A DNA stretch of 64,000 nucleotides from an uncultured Acidimicrobiaceae bacterium (GCA_947259275.1 CAMYMH010000001.1:108287-172286); one strand, 5' to 3'. Shown: positions 25,101 to 43,318, counted from the first letter of the stretch. Notes: generated by a model from the sequence alone, not told the origin. Numbers and translations are program-made.

Positions 25101-26137
25101 CGATGCTGCAGCGCGTACGGGATTACCTGCAGGGCGAGAGGGCGCTACTAGCCGGTGTCCTCGTCGTGCTACTGCTGGGACCCCTGCTGTTCAGCGAGTT
25201 CTTCATGAGTTTCGTGCTCACCCAAGCGCTCTGGCTCGGCGTTGCCGGCGTCAGCCTCATATTCCTGTCCGCCTACGGCGGAATGGTCTCGCTCGCCCAG
25301 ACGCTGCTCTACGGGGTGTGCGGGTTCGCCATCGGCAACGCAGTGACCACCGGCGGCAGCAAAGGGCTCAACCTGGGGCTCAACCCGTGGATCGGAGTTC
25401 TCCTCGGCATCGTCATAACGACCGCGCTTGGATTCGTGCTTGGACTGGTTTCGAGTAGATCAGCCGGGCTCTACTTCCTGATGATCACGCTGACTTACGG
25501 CGTCATCGGGTTCTACTTCTTCGGGCAAGTCACGACGTTCTCGGGGTTCGGCGGGATCAACGCCGTGGCCGCACCCGGGTACATCGGCGAGCCGGGGATA
25601 CATCCGGAGCGGCTCTACTACACGGCGCTCCTCATCGCGGTGTTCTCGTACCTGTTGCTGCGCTATGTGGCACGGACTCCGTTCGGTTTGGCGCTGCAGG
25701 GGGTGCGCGACGACCCGGTGCGGATGAGTTCCCTCGGGTACAACATCGTGTTGCACCGCACGCTGGCCTTCACCCTGGCGGCCTTCGTGGCGTCGTTGGC
25801 GGGGGTGCTCAACGTGTGGTGGAACCGACAGATCGACCCGGCCTCGATTGGGCTCGGACCCATCCTGAGTCTGCTGATCATCGTCATCATTGGTGGCATC
25901 GGTCGCCTGGAGGGAGCCTGGCTGGGAGCGTTCGTATTCGTCGTGATCAACAACTACGTCCGGAGCGTGCCCCTCGTCGACAAGATCGGCATTACCGAGG
26001 CACGGTTCAACACGATCGTTGGGGCAATCTTCCTCATCATCGTGTTGGTGTCACCCGACGGGTTGTTCGGGATCGGTGCAAAAGCGAGGAGGTTGACACA
26101 GCGGGGGCGCCGTCTGGCCTTCGCCAGGCAGGAGTGA
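25097..26137 (+). CDS. livM: Branched-chain amino acid-type ABC transporter permease (LivM-like)
   Basis: The ATG overlaps the upstream stop (ATGA). Multi-TM protein. The listed longer ORF 24692..26137 is an upstream frame extension. Confidence 0.75.
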   Translation: MTMLQRVRDYLQGERALLAGVLVVLLLGPLLFSEFFMSFVLTQALWLGVAGVSLIFLSAYGGMVSLAQTLLYGVCGFAIGNAVTTGGSKGLNLGLNPWIGVLLGIVITTALGFVLGLVSSRSAGLYFLMITLTYGVIGFYFFGQVTTFSGFGGINAVAAPGYIGEPGIHPERLYYTALLIAVFSYLLLRYVARTPFGLALQGVRDDPVRMSSLGYNIVLHRTLAFTLAAFVASLAGVLNVWWNRQIDPASIGLGPILSLLIIVIIGGIGRLEGAWLGAFVFVVINNYVRSVPLVDKIGITEARFNTIVGAIFLIIVLVSPDGLFGIGAKARRLTQRGRRLAFARQE

Positions 26138-26280
26138 GACATGAAGCATAGGATGCGGGGATTCGTCCACGCGTCAGAACCAAACATAGAGTAGAAGGTC
26201 CCTGTCGTTAGGCGGGAACCCTGCTCTACAAAGAACCAAACCCTGGGGCTCCAGCCTCAGAAATTGGGAGGAGTTATCTA

Positions 26281-27795
26281 GTGAAACATCGACTACTGCG
26301 CAAAGGGCCGGTGAGGTTAATCGCCGTGGCCCTCGCCCTGGCCCTAATTGCCGCCTCGTGCGGAGACGACGACGCGGCCACGACGGTGCCGAGTGGCACG
26401 GACACGACTGCGCCGAGCGGCACGGACACGACTGCGCCGGACACGACTGCGCCGAGCGGCACGGACACCACTGCGTCTACCGGTGGCACGGAGGTCATCA
26501 AGCTCGGCGTGGTTTCCGACTGTGAGGGCGCTTTCGGGGCGTTCCACAATCAGGACCTGGCCGGGGTTGGCACCGCCTTCGCCGAGTACGCGGGTGCGAC
26601 GATCCTCGATCCCGACGATGCCGCCGCCGGGTTCACCGGTGCATCCATCAACGGAATTCCCGTCGAGCTGGTCGGTGTCGGATGCGCCGACGACACGGCG
26701 GATGCGGCAATCCGCGAGACCCGTCGTCTCATGGAACAGTTGGAGGCCGACATCATGATCGGTCCTCTCTCCGGAGACGAGAGCATCGCGATAGCCAACT
26801 ACGCCAAGGATCACCCGGGTCAGACGTTCATCAACGGCTCGGCCGGAGCCCAGGACACGACGATGGCGGTGAAGGCGCCGAATTTCTTCCGGTTCAACGG
26901 TGACGGTGCGCAATGGAACGCCGGGACGGGCGACATCGCCCGCAACACCTTGGGCTGGGACACCGCGGCGGTGATCATGGACGATTACAGCTTCGCCTGG
27001 ACGTCGACCGCAGGGTTCATCGCTGAGTTCTGCGCCGCCGGTGGCGAGGTGATCTCACGGGTGTTCCCGCCGCTCAACACGACGGACTACTCGTCCTTCG
27101 TGCAGCAGCTGCCCGATCCGGACGAAGTAGACGGCTACTTCTGGACGATTGGCGGGGCCGGCACGATCGGCGGCCTGAAGGCGTTTGAGGATGCCAAAGG
27201 TCCGATCAGCGGCGATCAGCACATGGGGAACCTGTTCTGGGGCACCCCCGGCCAGTTCGAGGAACTCGGTGACCGAGTCGAGGGCGCCTACGTGGGTGGC
27301 TTCGGCACCGCCGGCGATCTCAAGACGGACGCGGTCGCGGCGCACACCGCGCTGGTCGACAAGTACTACGACTCGTTCCCGCCGTTCGAAGGCGATGCGG
27401 CCTCGCAGGCTCATTCGGGCTTCCTGGTCAACTACTTCATGGCTTCGAAGGCTCTGATCGAGGCGCTCAAGGAGATCGGTGGAGACATCTCCGACGGCCA
27501 CGCGGCGTTGAGGGACGCTCTGTCGAACCTGGAAGTGGAGGGCCCGTACGGCACCATCACGCTCGACGAGAACCGCCAGGCAATCCAGGACCAGTTCGTG
27601 CAGCAGGTGGTCCGGGGCGACGACGGAAACCTGGCGGTGGTGACCGTGGCGAAGATCCCCAAGGTCGACCAGACCTTCGGAGGAACCTTCGACGGAGATC
27701 CGCCCCCGGGGCGTGACGTGCCGGCTTGTGAGGTCCGGGATATACCTTGGATCGGGAACGCCATTCCGGTGGTCGACGGCATCCCCCAGGAGTGA
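26281..27795 (+). CDS. ABC transporter substrate-binding lipoprotein (periplasmic-binding-protein type I, Leu/Ile/Val-binding family)
   Basis: Lipobox (…LALIAASCGDD). PSGTDTTA×3-4 repeat linker. PBP1 domain. GGGAGG SD before a GTG start. Confidence 0.8.
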   Translation: MKHRLLRKGPVRLIAVALALALIAASCGDDDAATTVPSGTDTTAPSGTDTTAPDTTAPSGTDTTASTGGTEVIKLGVVSDCEGAFGAFHNQDLAGVGTAFAEYAGATILDPDDAAAGFTGASINGIPVELVGVGCADDTADAAIRETRRLMEQLEADIMIGPLSGDESIAIANYAKDHPGQTFINGSAGAQDTTMAVKAPNFFRFNGDGAQWNAGTGDIARNTLGWDTAAVIMDDYSFAWTSTAGFIAEFCAAGGEVISRVFPPLNTTDYSSFVQQLPDPDEVDGYFWTIGGAGTIGGLKAFEDAKGPISGDQHMGNLFWGTPGQFEELGDRVEGAYVGGFGTAGDLKTDAVAAHTALVDKYYDSFPPFEGDAASQAHSGFLVNYFMASKALIEALKEIGGDISDGHAALRDALSNLEVEGPYGTITLDENRQAIQDQFVQQVVRGDDGNLAVVTVAKIPKVDQTFGGTFDGDPPPGRDVPACEVRDIPWIGNAIPVVDGIPQE

Positions 27796-27808
27796 GGTAT
27801 CGATACAG

Positions 27809-28606
27809 GTGGAGAGGCGTACCGAAACTGGAAAGGACCTGACGACTGACGGTGCGCCTCCGATCCTGCGATTGCGCGGGATCGACATGGCCTTTGGAGG
27901 CGTGCAAGCCCTGCGCGACGTCGAGTTCGACGTCGCGCAGGGCGAGCGCCTCGGGATCCTCGGACCCAACGGGGCCGGCAAGACGACCCTGTTCAACGTG
28001 ATCGCCGGCGACTTTGCGCCCACCGCAGGGACGGTCGAGATCCACGGGCAGGACGTGACGTCAATGCCGGCCAGGAAGCGCCCGTCGCTCGGAGTGGGTC
28101 GTACATATCAGGTGTCGCGTCTCTTCTCCGGGCTGTCGGTGGAGGACAACCTCTACCTGGCGGTTCTCGGCAATGAAACCGGACACCATCGTCCGGTCAT
28201 CGTCAAGCGCGATGAGGATTACCGCACACGCGCTCGCGCCGCCGCGGTGGGGGTGTGGCTACAAGACGAGCTCGATACCCTCGTGTCCGGGCTGTCGCAC
28301 GGTGAGCAGCGTCAGCTCGAGGTGGGGATGGCAATGGTCACCCACCCGTCGCTCTTGATGCTCGACGAGCCGGCCTCCGGCCTATCGAGGGGTGAGCGAG
28401 AACGCTTGACCGAGCTGCTGTTGTCTCTGCAGGGCGACATCACGCTGTTGCTGATCGAGCACGACATGGACGTCGCTCTTACCGTGGCCGAACGGATCGT
28501 GATGATGCACGAGGGCAAGAAGATCACGGAGGGCACCCCCGCCGAGATCCGGGCGAACGCTCTCGTGCACCAGATCTATCTGGGAGAGCGTATCTCCTAT
28601 GACTGA
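27809..28606 (+). CDS. livG: ABC transporter ATP-binding protein (LivG-like)
   Basis: Walker A GPNGAGKTT, signature LSHGEQRQLE, Walker B LLMLDEP. Start (GTG 27809 or ATG 27884) uncertain. Confidence 0.8.
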   Translation: MERRTETGKDLTTDGAPPILRLRGIDMAFGGVQALRDVEFDVAQGERLGILGPNGAGKTTLFNVIAGDFAPTAGTVEIHGQDVTSMPARKRPSLGVGRTYQVSRLFSGLSVEDNLYLAVLGNETGHHRPVIVKRDEDYRTRARAAAVGVWLQDELDTLVSGLSHGEQRQLEVGMAMVTHPSLLMLDEPASGLSRGERERLTELLLSLQGDITLLLIEHDMDVALTVAERIVMMHEGKKITEGTPAEIRANALVHQIYLGERISYD

Positions 28607-29345
28607 GCCTCTTCTCAGCATCTCCCAGCTGGTCGGCGGGTACGGAAGCGCCCGGGTGCTCGACGGTATCGAACTGGAGGTCGGCGTCGAGGCGGTTTCC
28701 GTTATCGGTCGCAACGGCATGGGGAAGACAACACTATGCAACACGATCATGGGCCTGGTCCCAGCCATGTCCGGCTCGATCAGGTTCAAAGGAGAAGAGC
28801 TGGTCGGGAGATCTCCGCACCGGATCGCCGCCACCGGAATCGGCTACGTTCCGCAGGGGCGGCGCCTGTTCGAGTCATTGACGGTCGACGAGCACCTGCA
28901 AATGCTGGCCAAAGGTACGAGGGGCCGGCGCTGGACACCGGCCAGCGTCTACGAGTTGTTTCCCCGGCTGGCCGATCGCAAGCGACTCGGCGGTGCCCTC
29001 CTATCGGGTGGGGAACAGCAGATGCTGGCGATCGGGCGGGCGCTTCTCCTCAACGCCGATCTGATCATCCTGGACGAGCCCTCCGAGGGCTTGGCGCCCG
29101 CCATCGTGGACGACCTGATCACCACCTGTCACCACCTGGTCGAACAGGGCGAGGCGGTGCTCCTCGTCGAACAGAACCTCTCCGTTGCGACGGCCGTATC
29201 TGAACGCAACCTGGTGATGGTGTCCGGCCGGATCGAAGCCGAGATCTCGGCCGGCGCTCTGATGGGCGATCCGGTGGCCCAGCAGCGGTATCTGGGCGTG
29301 GAGACACTCAACCAAACCGATCAGGCCCACGGCGACGGTAAATGA
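28599..29345 (+). CDS. livF: ABC transporter ATP-binding protein (LivF-like)
   Basis: Walker A GRNGMGKTT, signature LSGGEQQML, Walker B LIILDEP. Confidence 0.85.
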   Translation: MTEPLLSISQLVGGYGSARVLDGIELEVGVEAVSVIGRNGMGKTTLCNTIMGLVPAMSGSIRFKGEELVGRSPHRIAATGIGYVPQGRRLFESLTVDEHLQMLAKGTRGRRWTPASVYELFPRLADRKRLGGALLSGGEQQMLAIGRALLLNADLIILDEPSEGLAPAIVDDLITTCHHLVEQGEAVLLVEQNLSVATAVSERNLVMVSGRIEAEISAGALMGDPVAQQRYLGVETLNQTDQAHGDGK

Positions 29346-30938: not shown

Positions 30939-31036
30939 GGGTACCAGGGCTCGATTTGGTGAGCCCGCTCCAACCCACCCCTCAGTCGGGTAGGCTCGGC
31001 GCAGCGTCCACGAGCCCATCCAAGGAGGGCAGAGCA

Positions 31037-32461
31037 GTGTCTGAGACCCATCGTGCCGTCATCCCCTTCGAGTCGCTCGACCCTCTCACGATCGGGGCCA
31101 GCGGCAACGAAGACCTCATCAACCGGGAGACTATTGAGATCGACATCCCGGCCGCCAACCTGATGGCGGACATTCGGCCGGACGAACCGGAGCCGATTGC
31201 AGACGCCACCGCGGCCGCGGCCGCCGCACTGGAAAGCCCCCACTCCGGGCCTCGCTTCTCCGAGCTTCTCAACGGTGCCGGCAGCGTGGCCGTGGTCATC
31301 GATAACCAGTTCCGGCCGACACCCACGTCGAAGTTACTGCCCGCCGTCCTCGATGCAATCGAGGCAGCCGGCATCACAGACGCCCGCGTGGTGTGCGCCA
31401 ACGGGAAGGTCTTTCCGATGTCGGAGTCGGATACCGTGCAGAAGATCGGCGAGGACAATCTCGCCCGTATGGAACAGATGGGCGTTCCCTTCATGCAGAA
31501 TGACCCGGGTAACCCCGCCGCTTACACCTACATCGGGATCTCGTCGCGCGGCACGCCGGTTTGGCTCCACACCGCGGTGGCCAGCGCCGATGTCAAGATC
31601 ACCGTCGGCCAAGCGCAGTCCAATCACTGGGGTGCCGGCGGCGGTGGCAAGCTCATCCTTCCCGGCGTCGTGTCGGACGCCACCATCGAGTCGAACCACG
31701 CCGCCTTCGTCACTTCGCCGCAGACCCACTATGGCGCAGTGGCCGGCCCGATGCGGTCCGACATCGATGAGGTGGCCACCATGTGCGAGCTGACGGCGAC
31801 GATGAATGTCATCCTCGACACCCATGGCCGGGTCTCCGATGTGCTCTTCGGCGCCCATCCCGATGCTCATCGCGAATCCATCAGGCGCTTCAACGCAACC
31901 TATGCGTACGACAACCCGGTGGCCGAGCATGGACCCGCCGACATCGCCATCTGCGGCGTGTTCGCCCCGACCGATCATTTGTTCTTCCATACCGGGTGGG
32001 GCGCCATGTCGACCGACCTGGTCGTTGGCGAGGGCGGCACCATCATCTACTGCTCGCCCTCTCCCGGTGTCCACACCGACCTGGGTGACTTCCCCGGACT
32101 GGCGCTGATGGATCTGATGCAGCCGTACATGCCGCCGACTCGGGAGAACTACGAGCGGGTACTGCATGACATCCACCACCGGGCGATCGAGATGTGGTCG
32201 GGCTGCATCTGGGTGCCGATCTACGAGGTAATGACGCGCAAGCACCTGACGATGGTGACCCTCGAGGAGAACTTGGCGATGGCTGCAGATATCGGCATCG
32301 ACGCCACCACGTCCCTGGACGAAGCCTTCGGGGCGGCCATGGGGCGCCATGGCCCCGACGCCAAGGTCATCGTCCTTCCATACGCGCGATACCAACTGCC
32401 CAAGAACGCCATCCGGATGGATGCGGAGGACATTACGACGCTCGAGCAGTTACGTCTGTGA
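31037..32461 (+). CDS. larA: LarA-family nickel-pincer-nucleotide-dependent 2-hydroxyacid racemase/epimerase homolog (DUF2088 + LarA C-terminal domain)
   Basis: Strong SD AAGGAGG 8 nt before GTG 31037. LarA-like sequence throughout (…VVIDNQFRPTP…HTGWGAMSTD…). Substrate unknown. Confidence 0.75.
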   Translation: MSETHRAVIPFESLDPLTIGASGNEDLINRETIEIDIPAANLMADIRPDEPEPIADATAAAAAALESPHSGPRFSELLNGAGSVAVVIDNQFRPTPTSKLLPAVLDAIEAAGITDARVVCANGKVFPMSESDTVQKIGEDNLARMEQMGVPFMQNDPGNPAAYTYIGISSRGTPVWLHTAVASADVKITVGQAQSNHWGAGGGGKLILPGVVSDATIESNHAAFVTSPQTHYGAVAGPMRSDIDEVATMCELTATMNVILDTHGRVSDVLFGAHPDAHRESIRRFNATYAYDNPVAEHGPADIAICGVFAPTDHLFFHTGWGAMSTDLVVGEGGTIIYCSPSPGVHTDLGDFPGLALMDLMQPYMPPTRENYERVLHDIHHRAIEMWSGCIWVPIYEVMTRKHLTMVTLEENLAMAADIGIDATTSLDEAFGAAMGRHGPDAKVIVLPYARYQLPKNAIRMDAEDITTLEQLRL

Positions 32462-32467
32462 CCAGCA

Positions 32468-32752
32468 GTGCCCTCGGGATCCAGCCGGCGGATCAGAGGC
32501 AGGACCACCATCGCCGAGATTCTCAGGATGTACCCGGATGGGCGCGCCTACCGGCTCATGCAGCAGTTGCATTGGGCCTGCCCCATGTGCGGTTTCGCCC
32601 CGCGCGAGCCGCTGGCAATGGCGGCCAAGAAGCACAAGAACTCGCCGCTGGCCGTACTCGAGGCCTTTCGAGCTCTCGACGAGCATGACGGACCAAGCGC
32701 AGAGATGATCGCCCGGGCGGCGGAACGACATAGGAAGTACGAGATGCCATGA
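32468..32752 (+). CDS. DUF1858-like small redox-disulfide (CxxC) protein
   Basis: …TIAEILRMYPDGRAYRLMQQLHWACPMCGF…, i.e. the ScdA/YtfE N-terminal-like DUF1858 with a CPMC motif. Sits between larA and larE. Confidence 0.55.
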   Translation: MPSGSSRRIRGRTTIAEILRMYPDGRAYRLMQQLHWACPMCGFAPREPLAMAAKKHKNSPLAVLEAFRALDEHDGPSAEMIARAAERHRKYEMP

Positions 32753-33546
32753 CTACTGCCGAAGCAAGATTGGCGGACGAACTTCGCTCGCTGGAGCGGG
32801 TTGTCGTCGCCTTTTCCGGTGGCGTGGATTCGGCGACCCTGGCCTATGCCGCGTTGCGCGTCCTCGGTCCTGACCGGATGCAGGCGGTCACGGCCGATTC
32901 CGATTCACTGGCGACCGGTGAGCTCGAGCACTGTGCCGACTTGGCCCGGCAATGGGATATGCCGTGGCGGTCGGTGGCCACCAACGAGCTCGCCAACGTC
33001 GACTACGTTGCAAACCAAGGCGACCGCTGCTTCTGGTGCAAGGATGCCCTCATGGATGCCCTGACACCCGTAGCCGCCGATCTTGGGGCGGCGATCACCC
33101 TCGGCGTCAACGTGGACGACCTCGGCGATCACCGACCCGGGCAGGAGGCCGCCCGTCAGCGCGGGGCCCGCTTCCCGCTGGTAGACGCCGGCCTTCGAAA
33201 GTCAGACATCCGTGAACTGGCCAAAGGGTGGGGTCTCCCGATCTGGGACCGGCCCGCCATGCCCTGCCTCAGCTCACGCGTACCGTACGGCACGCCGGTG
33301 ACCGTGCGAGTGCTGTCGCGCATCGACCGCGCCGAGATGGAGTTGCGGCGCCTCGGCTTCGGCGACCTCCGGGTTCGCCACTACGACGACACCGCACGGA
33401 TCGAGGTGCCGCTCTCGAAGATGACGGAGGTGGTGGAGCAGAGTGAGGTGATCGTCACCGCCTTGCAGCGCATCGGGTACCGCTACGTGACGCTCGATCT
33501 CGCCGGCCTGCGTTCCGGCAACCTCAACTCAGCGCTGTCGCAATGA
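32749..33546 (+). CDS. larE: LarE, ATP-dependent sulfur transferase for nickel-pincer cofactor (PP-loop ATP pyrophosphatase family); three conserved Cys suggest the [4Fe-4S] catalytic type
   Basis: PP-loop VVAFSGGVDS. Cys in CFWCK plus PCLSSRVPYG. Confidence 0.8.
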   Translation: MTTAEARLADELRSLERVVVAFSGGVDSATLAYAALRVLGPDRMQAVTADSDSLATGELEHCADLARQWDMPWRSVATNELANVDYVANQGDRCFWCKDALMDALTPVAADLGAAITLGVNVDDLGDHRPGQEAARQRGARFPLVDAGLRKSDIRELAKGWGLPIWDRPAMPCLSSRVPYGTPVTVRVLSRIDRAEMELRRLGFGDLRVRHYDDTARIEVPLSKMTEVVEQSEVIVTALQRIGYRYVTLDLAGLRSGNLNSALSQ

Positions 33547-34214
33547 ATACGTCTGACGACGGGCGAGTGGTGCATCTGGGCGACACGCGCCTCGATGTCG
33601 ATCGACGACGCCGCATCGGTATTCCCGAAGCGGTATACGCCGAGGGGAAGACCGCGGCTCAATGCGTCCGAATCGTCGAAGCCCTCCTCTCGGCCAACGG
33701 TGACCCGGTGATCGTCACCCGGACCAGCCCGGAGCAGCGCGAGTCCCTGGCGGTGCTCGAGCCCACCGCCACCTGGACGGCCACGCTCACCTGGCAGCAC
33801 GCCGAGGCGCAAGCTGTGAAACCGGTCGCCATTGTGTCGGGAGGCACGTCCGACCAGCCGGTGGTGGATGAGTGTCTCGGCACCCTGGCGGCGATGGGCG
33901 TTCCGGTTGAGACACATCGCGACGTGGGGGTGGCCGGCATCCACCGACTGGTCGACGTTCTGCCAAGTCTCGAGGGTGCCTCGGTCGTCGTGGCAGTTGC
34001 TGGTATGGAGGCGTCGCTGCCGACCGTTCTCGGCGGCCTGGTGTGGGCGCCGATTATCGGCGTACCCACCTCTACCGGCTACGGCTCGAGCTTCGAAGGC
34101 ATCACGGCGCTGTTGTCAATGCTCTCGTCGTGCGCTCCCGGGATCAGCGTTGTGGGAATTGACAATGGCTACGGGGCGGCTTGCGCGGCGTTGCGGAGCC
34201 TGGCGCACGACTGA
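33543..34214 (+). CDS. larB: LarB, nickel-pincer cofactor biosynthesis carboxylase/hydrolase (PurE-like)
   Basis: PurE-like C-terminal half (…VAIVSGGTSD…VVVAVAGMEASLP…GVPTSTGYG…). Confidence 0.8.
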   Translation: MNTSDDGRVVHLGDTRLDVDRRRRIGIPEAVYAEGKTAAQCVRIVEALLSANGDPVIVTRTSPEQRESLAVLEPTATWTATLTWQHAEAQAVKPVAIVSGGTSDQPVVDECLGTLAAMGVPVETHRDVGVAGIHRLVDVLPSLEGASVVVAVAGMEASLPTVLGGLVWAPIIGVPTSTGYGSSFEGITALLSMLSSCAPGISVVGIDNGYGAACAALRSLAHD

Positions 34215-35386
34215 TGGCGCGGGCACTGTGGCTCAACCCGGCGGTCGGCGTTTCCGGTGACATGTTGCTCGGGGCGTTGATCGACGCCGGCGCCGATGAG
34301 GCGAGCGTGCGCAAGGCGCTGGAGGCGCTCAACGTGACCGGATGGCATCTGGAGGTCATGGACGTCGAGCGCCGCGGGCTCCGCTGCCGTCACGCCAGGG
34401 TGACCGCCGAGGTTGCCGAAGAGCCGAGAACGTGGTCTGCCATCGATGCCTTGCTCGCCGGGGCCGATCTTCCGCCGTCGGCCTCACACGGGGCGCGGGC
34501 GACCTTCCGCCGACTCGGCGAGGTCGAGGCCGAACGGCATGGTGTGGGAATCGATGACGTGCACTTCCATGAGGTGGGCGCGGTGGATGCGATCGTCGAC
34601 ATCGTGGGGTGTTGGGCGGCCCTCGAGACATTGGAGGTTGGCGAGGTATGGTCAGGTCCGGTCGGGCTCGGGACGGGAACGGTGGCCTCATCGCACGGTG
34701 TGCTGCCGCATCCGGCTCCGGCCGTGCTCGGCCTGCTCGAAGGTGTTCCGGTCGTGGGGCTCGACTCGGCGAAGGAGACGGCCACTCCGACCGGCGTCGC
34801 CTTGCTGGTGACGATGGTGGATGAGTGGGGGACGGTTCCCTCCGGACGGCTCGAACGTTCGGGTCTTGGCGCCGGGAGCCGGGATGAGACAACTCATCCC
34901 AACGTGCTGGCCGCCGTGATGATCGAAACCGACGACTCCGCCGAAGTGGACGCCGTGTTGATCGAGACGACACTCGACGACGTAACTCCCGAGATTCTGG
35001 GTCACGTATTAGAACGTGCCCTGGATGCCGGCGCCGACGATGCCTGGCTGGTCCCCGTCGTCATGAAGAAGGCGCGCCCGGGTCACGAGCTGCGCATCCT
35101 GTGCGCCCCGGCGGTGCAGGAGCGTCTGATCGGTCTGGTGGCCGCCGAGACCGGCACACTGGGCATGCGGACCTATCGGGTTGGTAAACACATATTCCCG
35201 AGAGGGTTCGAGGAAGTCTTGTTGGATGGAGAGACCATCCGGATGAAGGTCGGTCCCTATGGGGCCAAGCCGGAGGCGGCCGACGTGATCCGGGTGGCGG
35301 ACGCCACCGGAAGGAGCGCTCGATCGGTGGCAGCCGAGGCGCTGGTCCGATGGGCGAGCCGCGTCACCAACGTGAAGGAGTCCTGA
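34214..35386 (+). CDS. larC: LarC, CTP-dependent nickel insertase (DUF111), unsplit
   Basis: …GVSGDMLLGALIDAGAD…FHEVGAVDAIVDIVG… DUF111 signature. The start shares one nt with the larB stop (TGATG). Confidence 0.8.
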   Translation: MARALWLNPAVGVSGDMLLGALIDAGADEASVRKALEALNVTGWHLEVMDVERRGLRCRHARVTAEVAEEPRTWSAIDALLAGADLPPSASHGARATFRRLGEVEAERHGVGIDDVHFHEVGAVDAIVDIVGCWAALETLEVGEVWSGPVGLGTGTVASSHGVLPHPAPAVLGLLEGVPVVGLDSAKETATPTGVALLVTMVDEWGTVPSGRLERSGLGAGSRDETTHPNVLAAVMIETDDSAEVDAVLIETTLDDVTPEILGHVLERALDAGADDAWLVPVVMKKARPGHELRILCAPAVQERLIGLVAAETGTLGMRTYRVGKHIFPRGFEEVLLDGETIRMKVGPYGAKPEAADVIRVADATGRSARSVAAEALVRWASRVTNVKES

Positions 35387-36010
35387 GTGGAGCTGCACAA
35401 CTCATTCGTGGTCGGTCGTCCGGTCGAAGAAGCCTGGGTCGTGCTCACCGATCTCGGGCGCATTGCCCCCTGCATGCCGGGAGCCCAGCTCACCGGGATC
35501 GAAGGCGACGAGTACCAGGGCCTGGTGAAAGTGAAAGTGGGGCCGATCGTGGCCACCTACACCGGCACTGCCACCTTCACCAGCTGCAACGAAGAGGATG
35601 GCGTCGCCATCATCAAGGCATCCGGGCGTGATACCCGCCAGGGCAACGCCGATGCTGTGATCACAGCCACCCTGAGGCCGGGTGGTGCCGGTACCAGTCA
35701 AGTCGATCTCGCCACCGACCTCAGCCTGAGCGGCAAGCTCGCCAGTTTTGGTAAAGGGGCCATCAAGGACGTCTCAACCAACATCCTCGGGCAATTCGCC
35801 GCCAACCTCGAGGCAATGCTCGCCCAGGAGACCGCCGCACCCAGCCCCCAACCGGCTGCGGCACCACCGGCGGAAAGTCAACCTCCGGCACCGCAGCCGC
35901 TGGATCTCGCCGCCGCTGCCCGGGCCCCGATGCGGAAGCTCGTCCTCCCGGTCGTCGTTGCCCTGCTGCTGATGGTGAGCTGGCGCTGCCTGCGCAGGCG
36001 GCGGCGCTGA
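35387..36010 (+). CDS. CoxG-like SRPBCC protein (carbon monoxide dehydrogenase subunit G family) with C-terminal TM anchor
   Basis: …HNSFVVGRPVEEAWVVLTDLGRIAPCMPGAQL… CoxG signature, a Pro/Ala-rich linker, then a hydrophobic tail plus RRRRR. Confidence 0.7.
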   Translation: MELHNSFVVGRPVEEAWVVLTDLGRIAPCMPGAQLTGIEGDEYQGLVKVKVGPIVATYTGTATFTSCNEEDGVAIIKASGRDTRQGNADAVITATLRPGGAGTSQVDLATDLSLSGKLASFGKGAIKDVSTNILGQFAANLEAMLAQETAAPSPQPAAAPPAESQPPAPQPLDLAAAARAPMRKLVLPVVVALLLMVSWRCLRRRRR

Positions 36011-36025
36011 CTCAATCCGGGGGAA

Positions 36026-36946
36026 TCAGAGCAACCCGGCCGCCTCGAGGGCCCGTTTGACCGCTTCGAGCTCGGCGGCGGGTAGCTTGACCAAAGGTGG
36101 CCGCACCACGGCACGCGGCTGCCGACCCAGCAGCACCAACGCCTCCTTGATACGGTTATGCATGTCGACGGCGGGTTCGGCATAGAAGCACTGTGCCAGC
36201 GGGTAGATGCGGTCGTTGATGGTCCGGGCGGCGGGCAGATCGCCGGATTGCACTGCGTTGAAGAGCGCCACCTGCAAGTCGGCAATGACGCTGCCCGAAC
36301 CGGAGAGCAGGCCGTTGCATCCCATCGTCAAGGAGGCCATCAGCCAGGCGCTGTTGGTCGACAGCACATTGATTGGCCGAGGTAGCCCCTGGAGAACCCG
36401 GACATGGCGCTCGTGGATGGCCCCACTGTTCCAGTCCTTGACGGCGCATATGGTCGGGACCTCCTCCACCATCTGCAACAGGGTGTCCATGGGGTAGGCG
36501 TAGTCGCCCGAGTATTGGAAGGCGATGAGCGGCAAATCGCTGGCGGCGGCGATGGTTCTGAAGTGAGCCAACGCCATCTCCGGCCGGCGCTGCCCGTGCA
36601 TCATCCCGATGGTGTGGGGCGGGAACACCAGGAGCGCCGAGGCTCCAGCCGCCTGGGCCATGGCTGCGATCCGGGCGGCTTCGAGGCTCCCGTCGGCGTA
36701 GACGCCGCTGATGACGGGCAAGGCGTTTCCCACCTCATCGAGTGCCAGGTCGAGGACCCGGTGCTGCTCGTCGACGGTGCAGGCGTGCACCTCCGAGGCG
36801 TGCCCGTTGACGGTGATGGCCGAGATCCCGACCACCCCGGCAACGTCGCGGAGGTGGCGCCGCGTGGCGTCGTTGTCGATAGAGAGATCTTCGTGGAATG
36901 CGAGAAGCGTCGCCGGGATGACCCCATCGGGCATGTAGGAACTCAT
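36026..36946 (-). CDS. DapA-family class I aldolase (dihydrodipicolinate synthase/N-acetylneuraminate lyase family)
   Basis: MSSYMPDGVIPATLLAF…GISAITVNGHASE…FQYSGDYAY… The long 750-aa ORF is an antisense extension over the + strand xanthine-dehydrogenase-family gene. Confidence 0.8.
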   Translation of the reverse strand: MSSYMPDGVIPATLLAFHEDLSIDNDATRRHLRDVAGVVGISAITVNGHASEVHACTVDEQHRVLDLALDEVGNALPVISGVYADGSLEAARIAAMAQAAGASALLVFPPHTIGMMHGQRRPEMALAHFRTIAAASDLPLIAFQYSGDYAYPMDTLLQMVEEVPTICAVKDWNSGAIHERHVRVLQGLPRPINVLSTNSAWLMASLTMGCNGLLSGSGSVIADLQVALFNAVQSGDLPAARTINDRIYPLAQCFYAEPAVDMHNRIKEALVLLGRQPRAVVRPPLVKLPAAELEAVKRALEAAGLL

Positions 36947-37021
36947 GGCCTCCTCGCGTCCGTGAACCGGATTATGGCGCGCCTGATCTGGGCAGGAAGC
37001 AGGCGAAGTAGGGTGCGGCCT

Positions 37022-39382
37022 ATGAGTTGGGTCGGGAAGCCTCTGGAGCGCATCGAGGATGAGACCCTGCTGCGCGGGCGGGGGCGTTTCATCGATGATC
37101 TCAATCCGGTGCCCGGCGCCTACCACGCCGCCGTGGTCAGGTCTCCCTACGCGGCCGCCCATCTCACCAGCATCGACGCTTCGGCCGCCCTCGCAAGTCC
37201 CGGCGTGCTGGCAGTTGTCACCGGCCAACAGGTTGCCGAGTTGACCAAGCCGTTTCATGCGGTGATCGACACACCGGTTGCCTTCCGGGCCGCGGCCGTT
37301 GAGGAAGTCCGATACGCCGGCGAACCGGTGGCGGTGGTGGTCGCCCGGGACCGCTACCTGGCCGAGGACGCCGCCGAGATGGTGGCGGTCGAGTATGAGC
37401 CCGCCGCCCCGGTGCTGACGCCGCTTGACGCGGTCGCGGCAGGCGCGATCGTCTCCGACCGATCCTTCGTCTACGGCGATCCGCTCGGCAAGCTGGAGGA
37501 GGCCGATCTCGTCGTGACGGAATCCTTCACGTTTCCTCGCTGGACGGGAACGCCTGTCGAGGGCTTCGGCGTGATAGCCGACTGGTCGGCCGCCGACGAC
37601 GCCCTCACCGTGTGGACCAATTTTCAGGGCCCATTCACGCTGTATATGGCCGCGGCCGCCGCCCTCGGGCTCCCGCGATCCAAGCTCCGGCTCATCACTC
37701 CACCCGACTCGGGTGGGAGCTTCGGCATCAAGGCCGCGGTATACACATACGTCGTGCTGATGGGAGCGGTTTCCCGCCATCTCGGCGTTCCGGTTCGCTG
37801 GATCGAGGACCGCCTCGAGCACTTGGCCGCCAGTGCTGCCTCCACCGAACGGGTCACCGAGGTCACGGCCGGCTTCACCAATGACGGCAAGCTGATCAGC
37901 CTCGGCTATGACGTCGTCGAGGACGTCGGTGCCTATCTGCGTGCCCCGGAACCGGCCACCCTCTACCGGATGCACGGCTCGCTCAGCGGTGCCTATACCG
38001 TGCAGGATGTCTCGGCTCGCAACCGGGTGGTGTTGACCAACCGTTGCCCAACCGGCCTCAACCGCGGATTCGGTGGTCCCCAGCTGTATTTCGCCCTCGA
38101 AGGCACCATGGCCATCGCGGCAGCCCGGCTCGGCATCGATCCCGTCGACCTGGCCCATCGCAATCTGGTGGCGGCCGGGGAGTTCCCTTACACGACCCCA
38201 ACGGGTGCCATCTACGACTCCGGCGACTACGCCGTATGCCTGGACGACGCGCTGGCAACGGTTGGATATGCCGAACACCGCCGCCGGCAGGCCGCGGCGC
38301 GCGCCGACGGGCGGTTGGTCGGAATCGGGATTGCGTGTGTGGTCGAGCCGTCGGTCTCCAACATGGGCTACATCTCACTCGCCGAGACCGCCCAAGAGCG
38401 CTCGGGAGGCCTGCCCAAGTCGGGAAACACCGAGGGAGCAACCATTTCAATGTCCCCCGGGGGCGGGGTGGTCGTGCAGATCTCGACGACGCCGCAGGGC
38501 CAGGGCCACCGGACGGTCGTCTCTCAGGTGGTCGCAGATCAACTCGGCCTCGAGCCGGGGGACATCGAGGTGGTCTCCGTTCTCGACACCCACGTCAATG
38601 CGTGGTCGATCGCGTCCGGGAACTACTCCTCTCGTTTTTCGGCGATGGGTGTGGCGGCGGTGCAGCAGGCAGCTGAGGAGTTGACGGCGGCGATCAAACA
38701 GATTGCCGCTCACGAGCTGGAGTGCGCGGTCCTCGACGTTGAGCTGCGCGATGGGAAAGCCGCCGTCGTCGGCCAGCAGGATGCCGCGGTCTCGCTGCGG
38801 CGCATCGCCGGCAAGGCTCACTGGAATCCCGAGGCGCTGCCCGACGGCGTTGCTCCGGGGCTTCGTTTCACATCATTTGTCTCGGCCCCCGGCCTCGAAC
38901 CGGCGGCGAGTGACGACACGATCGCCTCCTCCGCCGTCCATGGCTTCGTGGCCGACGTAGCCGTGGTCGAGGTGGATCGGGAAACCGGCGCGGTCACCGT
39001 TCTCGACTACGCAACCACCCACGACGCCGGGACGCTCCTCAATCCGCGCCTGGTCGAAGGCCAGGTCAGGGGCGGCTTCGCGCACGGCGCAGGCGTCGCC
39101 CTCATGGAGCGTCTCGCCTACGACGAGGACGGCAACTTGATCACCGCCAGCTTCATGGACTACCTATGCATGACCGCGTCGGAGGTGCCGCCGCTGCGGT
39201 CATCGCATATCGAGACGCCGTCACCGTTCACCGCCCTCGGTGCCAAGGGCCTTGGCGAGGGCAACACGATGAGCGCGCCGGTGACCATCGCAAACGCGGT
39301 ACGAGATGCGCTCGGCATCGAGCGGCTCGAGCTGCCGCTGACGCCTTCCCGGGTGTGGGAGCTCATCGAGCCCCTGTCATGA
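37022..39382 (+). CDS. Xanthine-dehydrogenase-family molybdopterin-binding large subunit (2-furoyl-CoA dehydrogenase HmfA-like / CoxL-like)
   Basis: MSWVGKPLERIEDETLLRGRGRFIDD… Has a GFGGPQ-type motif rather than CoxL's VAYRCSFR. Confidence 0.8.
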   Translation: MSWVGKPLERIEDETLLRGRGRFIDDLNPVPGAYHAAVVRSPYAAAHLTSIDASAALASPGVLAVVTGQQVAELTKPFHAVIDTPVAFRAAAVEEVRYAGEPVAVVVARDRYLAEDAAEMVAVEYEPAAPVLTPLDAVAAGAIVSDRSFVYGDPLGKLEEADLVVTESFTFPRWTGTPVEGFGVIADWSAADDALTVWTNFQGPFTLYMAAAAALGLPRSKLRLITPPDSGGSFGIKAAVYTYVVLMGAVSRHLGVPVRWIEDRLEHLAASAASTERVTEVTAGFTNDGKLISLGYDVVEDVGAYLRAPEPATLYRMHGSLSGAYTVQDVSARNRVVLTNRCPTGLNRGFGGPQLYFALEGTMAIAAARLGIDPVDLAHRNLVAAGEFPYTTPTGAIYDSGDYAVCLDDALATVGYAEHRRRQAAARADGRLVGIGIACVVEPSVSNMGYISLAETAQERSGGLPKSGNTEGATISMSPGGGVVVQISTTPQGQGHRTVVSQVVADQLGLEPGDIEVVSVLDTHVNAWSIASGNYSSRFSAMGVAAVQQAAEELTAAIKQIAAHELECAVLDVELRDGKAAVVGQQDAAVSLRRIAGKAHWNPEALPDGVAPGLRFTSFVSAPGLEPAASDDTIASSAVHGFVADVAVVEVDRETGAVTVLDYATTHDAGTLLNPRLVEGQVRGGFAHGAGVALMERLAYDEDGNLITASFMDYLCMTASEVPPLRSSHIETPSPFTALGAKGLGEGNTMSAPVTIANAVRDALGIERLELPLTPSRVWELIEPLS

Positions 39383-40254
39383 AGCCGCCCGTCGTCGACT
39401 ACCTGTGTCCAGAAACCGTCGCCGAAGCGGTCGATCTTCTCGGCGAGCATGCCGACGGCGCCAAGGTGCTGGCCGGAGGGCAGAGCCTCATGCCACTGTT
39501 GAACATGCGTTTCGCCTACCCGACGGTGCTGATCGACATCAACCGCCTCGAGGAGACAGCCGCAATCGAGCCGGGCGACGAGGTGGTGGTCATCGGTGCC
39601 ACGGTCCGACAGGGCGATGCCGACCAGTCTCGGACCGTGCACGCCATGGTGCCTCTGCTGGCCCAAGCACTGCCCCACATCGGCCATTTCGTAACCAGGA
39701 ACCGGGGCACCATCGGTGGCTCGGTGGTCCACGCCGATCCCCGCGGCGAGGTTCCACTGGTGATGGTCACCCTCGGCGGCCGGGCAACGGTGGTTTCCAC
39801 CTCCGGGACGCGTACCATCGAAGCGGACGATCTGTTCCTCAGTCACTACACCACCTCGATCGCAGACGACGAACTTTTGCTCGACACGATCTGGCCGGCC
39901 CCCGGTGGGTTGTGGGGTTACGCCTTTCGCGAGTTCTCTCAGCGGCACGGGGACTATGCCCTCGGCATGGTGGCATGTGCCCTACGCCGGGAAGACGGAG
40001 TGGCGAAGCAGGCGACGGTAGCCGTCGGCGCGGTGGCCGGGCATCCCGTCGTCCTCGACGAGGTCGGCGCCGCGCTGGTGGGGGAGCCGATCGATGAGCG
40101 AGCCGCGGCCGAAGCGGGCCGTCTCGCCGCCGCCGCCGTCGACCCGTCATCCGATTTACATGCCTCGGCCCGTTATCGCCGGCACCTGGTTGGCCTGCTG
40201 ACCGAGAGTGCCCTGCTTGCCGCTTGGGCGGATACCGAACGCGAGGAGGCGTGA
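39379..40254 (+). CDS. FAD-binding subunit of xanthine-dehydrogenase-family enzyme (CoxM/HmfB-like)
   Basis: ATGA overlap with the upstream stop. …AGGQSLMPLLNMRF… FAD-binding PCMH domain. Confidence 0.8.
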   Translation: MKPPVVDYLCPETVAEAVDLLGEHADGAKVLAGGQSLMPLLNMRFAYPTVLIDINRLEETAAIEPGDEVVVIGATVRQGDADQSRTVHAMVPLLAQALPHIGHFVTRNRGTIGGSVVHADPRGEVPLVMVTLGGRATVVSTSGTRTIEADDLFLSHYTTSIADDELLLDTIWPAPGGLWGYAFREFSQRHGDYALGMVACALRREDGVAKQATVAVGAVAGHPVVLDEVGAALVGEPIDERAAAEAGRLAAAAVDPSSDLHASARYRRHLVGLLTESALLAAWADTEREEA

Positions 40255-40724
40255 TCGAGGTCTCTGTTACCGTCAACGGCCGCGCCTACGAGGAGGCGGT
40301 GGCGCCGCGCCTGTTGCTGTCTGACTTCCTCCGCCACACCCTTGGACTGACCGGAACCCATGTCGGATGCGAGCACGGGGTGTGTGGCTCGTGCACGGTC
40401 ATCGTCGATGACCGGTCGGTCCGGTCTTGCCTGATGCTGGCCGCTCAGGTCGACGGAGCCGAGGTGAGGACCGTTGAGGGCCTCGCCGATGGCGACGAGC
40501 TGCACCCGCTCCAGGCCGCCTTCCGCCGCAACCACGCGCTGCAGTGTGGTTTCTGTACCCCGGGGATCCTGATGGCATCGGTGGACTTCCTGGAGAGAAG
40601 CGATTCTCCCGGCCGCCGCCAGATTGCCGAGATGCTCTCGGGCCACCTGTGTCGCTGCACCGGGTACGAGCCGATCGTCGAGTCGATCCATGCTGTTGCC
40701 CTCCAAGAAGGGCAATCGCCGTGA
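40251..40724 (+). CDS. (2Fe-2S)-binding subunit (CoxS/HmfC-like)
   Basis: GTGA overlap. CEHGVCGSCTV and CGFCTPG…CRCTGY motifs. Confidence 0.85.
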   Translation: MIEVSVTVNGRAYEEAVAPRLLLSDFLRHTLGLTGTHVGCEHGVCGSCTVIVDDRSVRSCLMLAAQVDGAEVRTVEGLADGDELHPLQAAFRRNHALQCGFCTPGILMASVDFLERSDSPGRRQIAEMLSGHLCRCTGYEPIVESIHAVALQEGQSP

Positions 40725-42232
40725 ACCTGGCCCGCACGCTCCACTACGCCGCCGAACGCACGCCCGACGCCGAAGCCGTGGTCGACGGCGAAACGCGGAT
40801 CGTCTACTCAGTGCTGCGGGAGCGGGCGGCCAGGCTGGCAGGGGGATTGGCGGCCCTGGGGGTGCAGCCCGGCGACCCGGTGGCGACCGTGCTCAAGAAC
40901 CGCCACGAGAATGTCGAGCTCTTCTGGGCCTGCCAATACCTGGGCGCCCAATTCGTACCCCTTTCCTGGCGCAACCCGCCGTCCGCAGTCGAGTACTGCG
41001 TGGAGGATGCCGGAGCCAACGTGGTGGTCTTCGAGCCGGCGAGCGAGCAGCATGCGGCGGCGGTGGAAGGCTCGGGGCGGAACCTGGTGGCGGCCGCCGG
41101 GTCATCGAGCGATTGCACTTTCGACGGCCTGTTGAAGTCGGAGCCGATCGAGGGGGCATTCGACCTGGCAGACACGGCGACGTCCATCATGCTTTACACG
41201 TCGGGAACTACCGGCCGGCCCAAGGGGGTGCCGCGGTCGCATCGGGCAGAGCGCACCGCCGCTATGTCTCAGGCCTTGCAGCATGGCTATGTCCCCTGGG
41301 AGCGGACGCTGGGGACCATGCCTTTGTTTCACACCATGGGCGATCACTCCATGATCGCCATGTCCCTGCTGGCCGGGTGCTACGTCTGCCAGCCGGACTG
41401 GGGGGCGGCGATGGGCCTCGACCAGGTCGAGCAGGAGCGCATCACGTCGCTGTACCTGGCGCCCACGCTGTTCCACGACCTGGTGAAAGATCCCGGTGTT
41501 GGAGATTGCGATCTGTCGTCGGTGCGGGCCCTGGGATACGCTGGTGCGGCCATGACGGGTGCGCTGGCCGAACGCTGTACCGCCGCATTCCAACCTGAGG
41601 TGTTCGTCAACCACTACGGGTCGACGGAGATCTACACGTTCACCATCGGTCGTCGCCAGGTCGACAAGCCCGGCAACGCCGGCCGGGCATCGGTCAACGC
41701 CCTGATCCGCCTGGTGACTGTCGAGTCCGGCGCCGGGCCGGACGATCTGGTAGGTGCCGGTGAGGACGGTCAGATCATCTGCCATATGTCTTCCCCGGAA
41801 GCCTTCACCGGATACTGGCAACGCCCGGATGCCGACGCCAAAGCCATCCGGGATGGGTGGTACTACACAGGAGATGTTGGCGTGATCGACGAGGACGGCG
41901 ACATGTGGATCGTGGGCAGAGCGGACGACATGATCAATTCCGGTGGCGAGAACATCCATCCGCTCGAGGTGGAGGAGGTGCTGGCCCGTGCCCCCGGCGT
42001 CATCGAGGCGGCGGTCTATGGGGTGGCGGACGAACGGCTCGGGCAGCGGGTGGTCGCCTCGGTGGTAGCGCAGCCCGACGCTACCGCCGAGACCCTCGAC
42101 CAGTACTGTCTGGCGTCACCCAACCTCGCCCGCTACAAGCGTCCCCGTGAGTACCGCATCGTCGAGGCGCTGCCCAAGAGCGCATCGGGGAAGGTTCTCC
42201 GCCGAGTCTTGAGAGAAGGAGACAAGACATGA
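40721..42232 (+). CDS. AMP-dependent acyl-/aryl-CoA ligase (HmfD 2-furoyl-CoA synthetase-like)
   Basis: GTGA overlap. AMP-binding motif YTSGTTGRPKGV, and …YGSTE… …GDxG… motifs. Confidence 0.8.
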   Translation: MNLARTLHYAAERTPDAEAVVDGETRIVYSVLRERAARLAGGLAALGVQPGDPVATVLKNRHENVELFWACQYLGAQFVPLSWRNPPSAVEYCVEDAGANVVVFEPASEQHAAAVEGSGRNLVAAAGSSSDCTFDGLLKSEPIEGAFDLADTATSIMLYTSGTTGRPKGVPRSHRAERTAAMSQALQHGYVPWERTLGTMPLFHTMGDHSMIAMSLLAGCYVCQPDWGAAMGLDQVEQERITSLYLAPTLFHDLVKDPGVGDCDLSSVRALGYAGAAMTGALAERCTAAFQPEVFVNHYGSTEIYTFTIGRRQVDKPGNAGRASVNALIRLVTVESGAGPDDLVGAGEDGQIICHMSSPEAFTGYWQRPDADAKAIRDGWYYTGDVGVIDEDGDMWIVGRADDMINSGGENIHPLEVEEVLARAPGVIEAAVYGVADERLGQRVVASVVAQPDATAETLDQYCLASPNLARYKRPREYRIVEALPKSASGKVLRRVLREGDKT

Positions 42233-43017
42233 CCTATTCGACGGAGCTGGACGGCATGCGCTTTGAGCGCGACCCCGGCCGCGGCGTTGCCACCATCACG
42301 CTTGACGTCCCCGACAAGCACAATCGGGTTTCGATGCTGAGCAGGAATCAGCTGGCTGCGCTCTTCGAGGAGATCGGTAGAGATGACGAGGTGCGGGTTG
42401 TGATGCTCGCCGGAGCAGGCGAGCGCGCCTTCACCGCGGGTGGTGACATTCCAGGATTTCTCGAGGCCTCGCCCGAGACTCTGACCCGGCTGCACCACAA
42501 CGTCGCCGCGCCGGAACGATGCCCGAAGCCGGTAATCGCCAAGCTGCATGGCTACTGCCTCGGGGTGGGGACGGAGCTGGCGCTGGCATGTGACTTCCGG
42601 ATCGCGGCCTCCGACCTCCAGCTGGGTCTTCCGGAGATCAGGATCGGCATGATGCCGGGTAGCGGCGGTACCCAACGCATGGCGCGTCTGATCGGGCTCG
42701 GCCGGGCCAAGGACATGATCATGCGGGGGCGGAGGATCGAGGCGGAGGAAGCGCTGGCCTATGGGCTGGTCACCGAGGTCGTGGAGCCAGATGAGCTGGA
42801 CGAGGCAGCCGACCGGCTGGCAGTTGAGCTGATGGGCCATTCACCGTTGGCGATGGCGATGGTGAAGCGGATCCTCAATCGTGCCTACGACGGCTCGCTG
42901 CAGACCGGCCTGGAGCTGGAAGGCCTCGCCTACGGTTTCCTGCGCACCACCGACGACTTCCGAGAAGGCGTCGAGTCGTTCGTCGAGGGCAGGCCACCCG
43001 TCTACCGCGGCTCCTGA
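42229..43017 (+). CDS. Enoyl-CoA hydratase/isomerase (crotonase) family protein (HmfE-like)
   Basis: ATGA overlap. Crotonase fold sequence (…AGAGERAFTAGGDI…). Confidence 0.85.
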   Translation: MTYSTELDGMRFERDPGRGVATITLDVPDKHNRVSMLSRNQLAALFEEIGRDDEVRVVMLAGAGERAFTAGGDIPGFLEASPETLTRLHHNVAAPERCPKPVIAKLHGYCLGVGTELALACDFRIAASDLQLGLPEIRIGMMPGSGGTQRMARLIGLGRAKDMIMRGRRIEAEEALAYGLVTEVVEPDELDEAADRLAVELMGHSPLAMAMVKRILNRAYDGSLQTGLELEGLAYGFLRTTDDFREGVESFVEGRPPVYRGS

Positions 43018-43125
43018 GGCAGGTTTCGCTTGTCGCCTTGCTCACAGCAGTATCCACGGATGTCTCTCCCCCCGGAGGGGGGAGTCCGACGAAGTCGGGA
43101 GGGGGGCGGCAACACCTTCGGCGTA

Positions 43126-43255
43126 GCACCTGTCAAGATCAGCAGTAGTTGCGAAGCAACTCCCAAGGAACGCGCAGCGTTCCCCGCAACTGCACCTGTC
43201 AAGATCAGCAGGAGTTGTGAAGCAACTCCCAAGGAGCGCGCAGCGTTCCCGTCCC
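43126..43255. repeat. Two tandem ~66-bp direct repeats, each containing two perfect hairpins. The block is flanked by G/C-rich hairpins (43064-43099 and 43275-43292). Intergenic between convergent genes
   Basis: Copies at 43126 and 43192: GCACCTGTCAAGATCAGCAG(T/G)AGTTG(C/T)GAAGCAACTCCCAAGGA(A/G)CGCGCAGCGTTCC. Internal stems are AGTTGC-GAA-GCAACT and GGAACGC-GCA-GCGTTCC. Flanks are CTCCCCCC-GGA-GGGGGGAG and CTCCCCC-TCC-GGGGGAG. Confidence 0.6.
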
Positions 43256-43318
43256 CTCCGCCCCTGACGGGACACCTCCCCCTCCGGGGGAGGAAACGAC
43301 AGCGATCGCGGATCCTGC

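Follow-up and report, generated by a model that had tools for sequence, protein, structure and literature searches.

An hmfABCDE-type gene module in an uncultured Acidimicrobiaceae bacterium and its association with CoxG and a LarA-like gene

We analysed a 64,000-nucleotide stretch of DNA, here called the window, from an uncultured Acidimicrobiaceae bacterium (GCA_947259275.1 CAMYMH010000001.1:108287-172286). Five genes at 37022-43017 form a module that is likely orthologous to hmfABCDE, the genes of the lower (Trudgill) pathway by which bacteria break down 2-furoic acid. An intact hmf operon in an uncultured actinobacterium is ordinary; what sets this one apart is its ties to a membrane-anchor gene, coxG, and to an unusual nickel-cofactor enzyme resembling LarA. 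Furfural and furoate are widespread sugar-dehydration products in plant litter, fire-affected soil and processed biomass, and to our knowledge their breakdown has been studied almost solely in Proteobacteria. The module, together with its many metagenomic relatives, suggests that uncultured soil Actinomycetota are also furoate consumers.

Gene content and orthology of the module

All five genes lie on the plus strand, each as an open reading frame (ORF) with a single, terminal stop. L (37022..39382, 786 aa; Ald_Xan_dh_C, MoCoBD_1 and MoCoBD_2 domains) encodes an HmfA-type molybdopterin large subunit, predicted to be like that of 2-furoyl-coenzyme A (CoA) dehydrogenase. M (39379..40254, 291 aa; FAD_binding_5 and CO_deh_flav_C; two Cys) is an HmfB-type flavin adenine dinucleotide (FAD) subunit, and S (40251..40724, 157 aa; Fer2 and Fer2_2; eight Cys) an HmfC-type subunit with two [2Fe-2S] clusters. 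Directly 3' of these, again with four-base overlaps, come an HmfD-type aryl/heteroaryl acid-CoA ligase, the predicted 2-furoyl-CoA synthetase (40721..42232, 503 aa; AMP-binding and AMP-binding_C), and an HmfE-type crotonase (42229..43017, 262 aa; ECH_1), which is predicted to carry out ring opening and thioester hydrolysis to 2-oxoglutarate. The junctions read from the sequence are, in order, ATGA, GTGA, GTGA and ATGA, just as the original prediction had them, and Shine-Dalgarno-like motifs precede the starts of S, the ligase and the crotonase. Four-base overlaps are frequent in high-GC operons and have little meaning by themselves. The five products are collinear with hmfABCDE (BLASTP E values from 1e-51 to 0), a match far beyond what chance would give. 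Scans for sigma-70 promoters and terminators in 35900-43400 gave a number of sites not above that in shuffled sequence, and a search of sequencing runs found one soil DNA run with 5% of the sequence words and no RNA run with any.

As references we used the hmf clusters of Cupriavidus pinatubonensis p2, Dinoroseobacter shibae pDSHI01 and Geobacillus kaustophilus pHTA426, standing in for that of Cupriavidus basilensis HMF14. C. pinatubonensis JMP134 grows on furoate (PMC8091172), the reference sequence being from a strain other than the published degrader, and D. shibae DFL12 is a confirmed furfural degrader (PMC3223595). In the annotated reference clusters a LysR or AraC regulator is followed by A-B-C-D-E, and the window order L-M-S-ligase-crotonase is this canonical one, as in L001 and L002. 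L was 49% identical to HmfA of C. pinatubonensis and D. shibae (over residues 4-782) and to the G. kaustophilus homologue. Over their full lengths, and against all three references, M showed 39-42% identity to HmfB, S 55-64% to HmfC, the ligase 45-47% to HmfD and the crotonase 48-54% to HmfE. These values exceed the thresholds used in the literature to recognize hmf clusters, namely at least 40% similarity for each of HmfA, HmfD and HmfE within one neighbourhood (PMC3223595) and at least 45% HmfA identity (PMC8091172). Both hydratase glutamates are kept in the crotonase, and the nearest solved structure of the ligase is 4-chlorobenzoate-CoA ligase.

A reciprocal search with C. pinatubonensis HmfA, HmfD and HmfE against the whole source genome (3.85 Mb, with nine large-subunit paralogues) returned the window genes as best matches in every case: L with 777 bits vs 380 for the next paralogue, the ligase with 486 vs 179, and the crotonase with 264 vs 119. 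When L was used in tblastn against plasmids, the matches fell into two identity groups, one at 44-52%, corresponding to hmf-type clusters and including those of the three reference species, and the rest at 38% or less. In a search of 5.8 billion protein sequences the best 120 matches to L were all at least 65% identical and came from Acidimicrobiia, Gaiellales and Thermoleophilia; relatives at 65-85% identity often carry the automatic name '2-furoyl-CoA dehydrogenase large subunit' given by the Joint Genome Institute (JGI). Identity, gene order, reciprocal best matches, the tree and the clade motifs (see below) support the hmfABCDE reading originally proposed.

The module differs from the C. 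basilensis type, with which it shares the same five families in the same order at about 40-64% identity, in that no LysR/AraC regulator, major facilitator superfamily (MFS) transporter or XdhC gene adjoins it; the XdhC genes of the source genome were found only away from the module. It differs further in its linkage to a LarA-like nickel-pincer enzyme and the genes for its cofactor, and in that CoxG is separate, tail-anchored and chained to larE-larB-larC, whereas in Proteobacteria it is fused to HmfA. The presence of an hmf-type module in an actinobacterium stands as an observation but is less novel than had been implied, given the JGI names above and the extension of hmf homologues to Gram-positive bacteria in a 2011 review (PMC3223595). 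We found no title about an actinobacterial system in the furoyl-CoA literature.

Phylogeny of the large subunit, proposed pathway and competing readings

Trees were obtained with quick IQ-TREE runs under LG+G4, supported only by the Shimodaira-Hasegawa-like approximate likelihood ratio test (SH-aLRT), and the form I reference was a CoxL from Marivivens named by the Prokaryotic Genome Annotation Pipeline (PGAP). L fell inside a clade of 14 rows, all from Actinomycetota metagenome-assembled genomes (MAGs), with an SH-aLRT of 100; this clade was the sister of proteobacterial HmfA (94-98), and the whole HmfA-like clade had 99-100. Further out, yet still inside the HmfA-like clade, were Geobacillus, the actinobacterial family f21, the actinobacterial genome G145, a haloarchaeon and a Methanobacteriota MAG. 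Form I CoxL was placed elsewhere, together with a different large-subunit paralogue of the source genome. Clustering of L with CoxL form I/II or with free-acid hydroxylases had been named as an outcome that would speak against the hmf assignment; its position in the HmfA clade instead supports it. Four motifs found only in the HmfA clade are present in L: DSGGSFG(I/V)K with a one-residue insertion, GL(N/V/I)RGFGGPQ, GNYSSRF and HDAG. The second, which reads GLNRGFGGPQ in L, replaces the AYR-type loop and is without the CoxL cysteine. The catalytic Glu is retained in L. The nine xanthine-dehydrogenase-family large subunits of the source genome are on contigs C2, C13, C19 and C26 and in the window, here also at 18376-22176; on C13 the form I CoxL-like gene adjoins an XdhC gene.

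By orthology, the steps carried out by the module would follow the Trudgill/Koopman scheme. Furoate would be taken up and converted by the ligase to 2-furoyl-CoA, which the molybdenum hydroxylase L-M-S would hydroxylate at C5 with oxygen from water. The two electrons would pass through the two [2Fe-2S] clusters to FAD and from there, with the help of CoxG, to a membrane acceptor. The hydroxylated product would tautomerise to a lactone, and the crotonase-family protein would act in ring opening, thioester hydrolysis or both, giving 2-oxoglutarate and CoA. In the published scheme lactone hydrolysis and tautomerisation are without an assigned gene. The comparisons establish homology, gene order, clade membership and the retention of catalytic residues; from them we infer which substrate and which electron acceptor are used and that CoxG acts at the membrane.

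Going by names, L finds its best matches in NCBIfam and the Protein Data Bank (PDB) among CO dehydrogenase large subunits and in quinoline 2-oxidoreductase, and the window enzyme shares with form I CoxLMS and its CoxG (8UEM, 1N5W) the three-subunit architecture, the Pfam domains and the CoxG accessory protein. On these grounds L-M-S could be a form I or form II CO dehydrogenase, or could hydroxylate a free N-heterocyclic acid, with the ligase and crotonase as mere neighbours, which we consider very improbable. The nearest PDB structures, CoxL at 428 bits and quinoline 2-oxidoreductase at 378, and also HcrA (1RM6) at only 232, all score well below the 730-806 bits of L against HmfA, the three-way comparison with HmfA, HcrA and CoxL that had been advised at the outset. 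The best-named NCBIfam models (CO dehydrogenase, glyceraldehyde dehydrogenase, xanthine dehydrogenase and 4-hydroxybenzoyl-CoA reductase) were all far under their cut-offs; NF040766 gave 496 vs a cut-off of 950 and TIGR02416 451 vs 991, both also below the HmfA scores of L. No curated NCBIfam model reaches its cut-off for any of the three enzyme subunits. The CoxL active-site loop with its Cu-binding Cys (AYRCSFR) is absent from L, a form I CoxL that the source genome encodes on a different contig groups with named CoxL, and the five genes remain together across rearranged gene orders. The sub-cut-off scores, the missing Cys loop and the separate clade contradict the CO dehydrogenase or free-acid hydroxylase assignment. 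The only other family member known to work on a CoA thioester, anaerobic 4-hydroxybenzoyl-CoA reductase, raises another alternative, an enzyme running in reverse as a reductive aryl-CoA dehydroxylase. HcrABC (1RM6) does share the xanthine-dehydrogenase family and an aromatic CoA thioester substrate, and S gave 173 bits on the HcrC model, but TIGR03193-03195 were all below cut-off (349 vs 995, 76 vs 405 and 173 vs 258 bits), L scored 232 bits against HcrA vs 730-806 against HmfA, and M aligns with no more than the initial third of the HcrB model. The FAD subunit of HcrABC carries an extra Fe-S insertion, for which M, with only two Cys, has no counterpart, and the window module is of the aerobic dehydrogenase type. 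Contradicted by the Hcr scores and by the absent Fe-S loop, the reductase assignment is hardly credible.

An alternative that is unlikely but deserves more weight than the two above keeps the chemistry (CoA activation, molybdenum hydroxylation beside the heteroatom and crotonase-type ring opening) and changes the physiological substrate, which might be thiophene-2-carboxylate, pyrrole-2-carboxylate, a substituted furoate or a compound first converted by the LarA-like enzyme. Identity to verified Hmf proteins is only about 40-64%. The LarA-like gene and the small CxxC gene next to it are linked to the module in most actinobacterial relatives and absent from the proteobacterial, Bacillota and archaeal hmf clusters examined. 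The haloarchaeal member of the clade has a different layout: M-S-L comes with two ligases, and a PaaI thioesterase takes the place of the crotonase. A molybdenum-dependent enzyme that hydroxylates thiophene-2-carbonyl-CoA has been described; we know of no sequence for it. On the other side, orthology is clear and the margin over paralogues large for every one of the five proteins, even for the ligase and the crotonase, which usually diverge fast; furan-linked clusters bearing HmfF-like UbiD genes bracket the clade; and relatives without the LarA-like gene (L011 and family f21) have the same module genes.

Several points weigh against a furoate pathway of the published kind, even though we continue to regard the module as the likely hmfABCDE orthologue. 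The substrate is assigned at about 50% identity, for an organism represented by an uncultured MAG and for a group of enzymes of which no actinobacterial one has been assayed. The furfural result for G. kaustophilus HTA426 is cited as preliminary and unpublished (PMC3223595), and no solved HmfABC structure was found in a PDB search. A LysR- or AraC-type regulator such as those seen in Proteobacteria does not adjoin the module. Reasoning from the active site is limited, as the NFQGPF motif varies at its Gln even among proteobacterial HmfA. Finally, most relatives have the LarA-like enzyme in tight linkage although the published pathway has no place for it, and some details of the pathway or of the substrate may therefore be different.

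CoxG and the linked LarA-like gene: a probable larger unit

The coxG gene (35387..36010, plus strand; PF06240) encodes the CoxG-like SRPBCC protein noted earlier upstream of the module, a probable membrane anchor and sixth enzyme component. It starts with GTG immediately after the larC stop, and its product has a Pro/Ala linker, a hydrophobic C-terminal tail and then RRRRR; L004, L005 and L032 conserve this tail anchor. The 786-aa L has no COXG domain, whereas proteobacterial HmfA is 983-1012 aa long because a COXG domain is fused at its C-terminus. In Geobacillus the COXG domain is a separate gene right after L, and in family f21 a CoxG gene comes after S. In G145 (L031:7597-8772, minus strand) S and CoxG make up one protein of 391 aa with Fer2, Fer2_2 and COXG domains; CoxG has here been joined to an hmf-type subunit a second time, independently of the HmfA fusion. 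The occurrence of a split, tail-anchored form together with alternative fusions to L or S indicates that CoxG is a real component of furoyl-CoA dehydrogenase, and this bears on how the enzyme delivers its electrons. CoxG of CO dehydrogenase anchors that enzyme to the membrane, and by analogy the window CoxG probably tethers its enzyme there, allowing electrons to pass to the respiratory chain. A complex prediction with L and CoxG residues 1-150 scored 0.00, a value that gives no verdict and is used as evidence in neither direction.

Upstream of coxG, on the same strand, lie a gene for a LarA-like nickel-pincer nucleotide (NPN) enzyme (30956..32461, 501 aa; Lar_N), a small CxxC gene (32468..32752, 94 aa; no Pfam match at E <= 0.001) and larE-larB-larC for nickel-pincer cofactor synthesis (32749..35386; NAD_synthase-like, AIRC and Ni_insertion). 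The lar genes are chained to one another, with junctions ATGA, ATGA and TGATG, and coxG is next in the chain. The LarA-like protein has the Lar_N fold of the LarA superfamily of 2-hydroxyacid racemases and epimerases, with larBCE adjoining. Aligned to 6D6Z and 9EIA, it keeps the counterparts of the NPN-binding residues Arg75, Lys184 (in the GGxK motif) and His200 (the Ni ligand). Its score was below all NCBIfam LarA-family cut-offs (183 vs 500), and the catalytic pair by which LarA members are recognized, His108 and His174 of Lactiplantibacillus plantarum LarA, is not in place: the position of His108 is occupied by Val or Phe, and that of His174 by Asn, with a His one residue later. Besides these replacements, the window protein differs from the LarA superfamily in being linked to a CoA-dependent furan-type pathway. 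The LarA literature that we checked made no mention of such a context and held no link between LarA and furoate, and among papers ranked for LarA or nickel-pincer together with furoate no top-ranked one contained both kinds of term.

The window genes were compared by tblastn with 22 related loci, and about 25 loci were examined in all. The LarA-like gene and the small gene adjoin the module or lie within about 6 kb of it in L005-L008, L013-L017 and L019; seven genes (the LarA-like gene, the small gene and the module) are contiguous in L008, L013, L014 and L019, and the flanks of this block, checked in L008 and L013, contain unrelated genes. Orthologues of the LarA-like protein at related loci, L031 included, are 69-90% identical and more conserved than L, and those of the small protein, encoded directly 3' of the LarA-like gene in the related loci, are 55-82% identical. 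The pairing is not universal: in L011 and L012 the five module genes stand alone among housekeeping genes. The L012 genome has a LarA-like orthologue at another site, beside larB and larC, and in the L011 genome no LarA-like gene was found with the window protein as query. No match at E <= 1e-20 was obtained when the LarA-like protein was searched by tblastn against 72,556 plasmids, and none of about 40 plasmid-borne hmf clusters has a LarA-like gene on its replicon.

In a sample of 300 genomes drawn evenly from the phylum, an HmfA-like gene was present in four; a LarA-like orthologue occurred in one of those four, G145, and in none of the genomes without the module. The pairing is thus frequent among the relatives, and the dependence goes in one direction. 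G145 has its genes in the order ligase-L-crotonase-M-(S-CoxG)-LarA; larBCE are divergent, and an IclR regulator is found alongside. Since this arrangement differs from that in the window and belongs to a distant branch of the tree, it argues for function rather than inheritance alone. Three points speak for a role in catabolism: the gene is linked to hmf genes on two widely separated branches of the HmfA tree, in which the gene orders differ; the orthologue is present only in a module-bearing genome of the sample; and the window lar operon ends in coxG, a molybdenum-enzyme component. We put forward, tentatively and as something short of an even chance, that the LarA-like enzyme and the CxxC protein are a working part of actinobacterial furoate-type catabolism, catalysing a nickel-pincer reaction not yet described. 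As a guess, the enzyme might carry out a hydride-shuttle isomerisation, which would be chemically coherent and need just one acid/base residue. It might, for example, bring an off-pathway tautomer or ring-opened product of 5-hydroxy-2-furoyl-CoA back to the level of 2-oxoglutarate; such a compound could be a 2-hydroxy-enoyl C5 acid or its CoA ester. The recurrent link with an enzyme lacking a catalytic His offers a metabolic context in which to seek a new nickel-pincer reaction. Of the five-gene unit first proposed, the five genes are real but the unit is larger: CoxG belongs to it, and the LarA-like/CxxC pair is linked in most actinobacterial relatives.

Neighbouring genes and variant modules

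Between coxG and the module, on the minus strand, lies a DHDPS/DapA-family gene (36026..36958; PF00701, below every NCBIfam cut-off), in agreement with the divergent DapA-family gene reported before. Among the relatives examined it was found only in the nearest one, L004, being absent from L005 and all the others, and it is probably an insertion and not part of the module. At the other end, a gap of about 300 bp (43018-43320), in which a simple terminator scan was empty, separates the crotonase stop from a convergent diol-dehydratase gene. Extended short-chain dehydrogenase/reductase (SDR) and RraA-like aldolase genes at 29342-30938 precede the LarA-like gene. Among the related loci the SDR gene is present in L005 and the RraA-like gene in L005 and L007, so that both, occurring only in the closest loci, are probably lineage-specific.

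An ATP-binding cassette (ABC) transporter of the branched-chain-amino-acid type, with permeases, a lipoprotein binding protein and two ATPases by Pfam, occupies 24039..29345 on the plus strand. The same type of transporter comes after hmfABCDE in three Alphaproteobacteria (D. shibae, Bosea and Azospirillum), and in L015 and L021 one of the branched-chain type is found close to the LarA-like gene. The window transporter is a possible uptake system, weakly linked to the module. With the D. shibae hmf-linked binding protein as query, the window binding protein was not found at E < 1e-5, and the reverse search gave only about 22% identity, so a specific orthology of the two transporters is not supported.

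Rearranged gene orders are found in the modules of other Actinomycetota. In G141, of family f21, the order is L-ligase-crotonase-M-S, with an HmfF-like UbiD gene about 2.4 kb away; this UbiD-family decarboxylase (L033:470-1849, minus strand) shares 51% identity with the UbiD that is linked to hmf in D. shibae, which suggests use of 2,5-furandicarboxylic acid (FDCA) in the family. UbiD genes flank the Geobacillus and D. shibae hmf clusters too, and their presence beside these and the G141 cluster ties the HmfA clade to furan metabolism. A search of the source genome found no UbiD (HmfF) gene, so furoate use would be expected, but not use of FDCA or 5-hydroxymethylfurfural (HMF).

Within the HmfA clade, a plasmid of Halorussus vallis (L028:1475-13404) carries genes for an SRPBCC protein, a BenE transporter, a PaaI thioesterase, a ligase, M-S-L, a second ligase and XdhC; this module has no crotonase, the PaaI thioesterase being in its place. 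On a plasmid of Bosea vestrisii (L034:9022-11947) HmfA is represented by two overlapping coding sequences and may be frameshifted or mis-sequenced; a PaaI thioesterase gene follows hmfE there. An isochorismatase-family gene (23406-24017) is the first of the transporter operon upstream of the lar genes, and in Azospirillum oryzae (L035:2524-7624) the hmf cluster adjoins NAD-salvage genes (isochorismatase-family, PncB, NadE and NadM-type). A link to the supply of the nicotinate-derived cofactor is possible.

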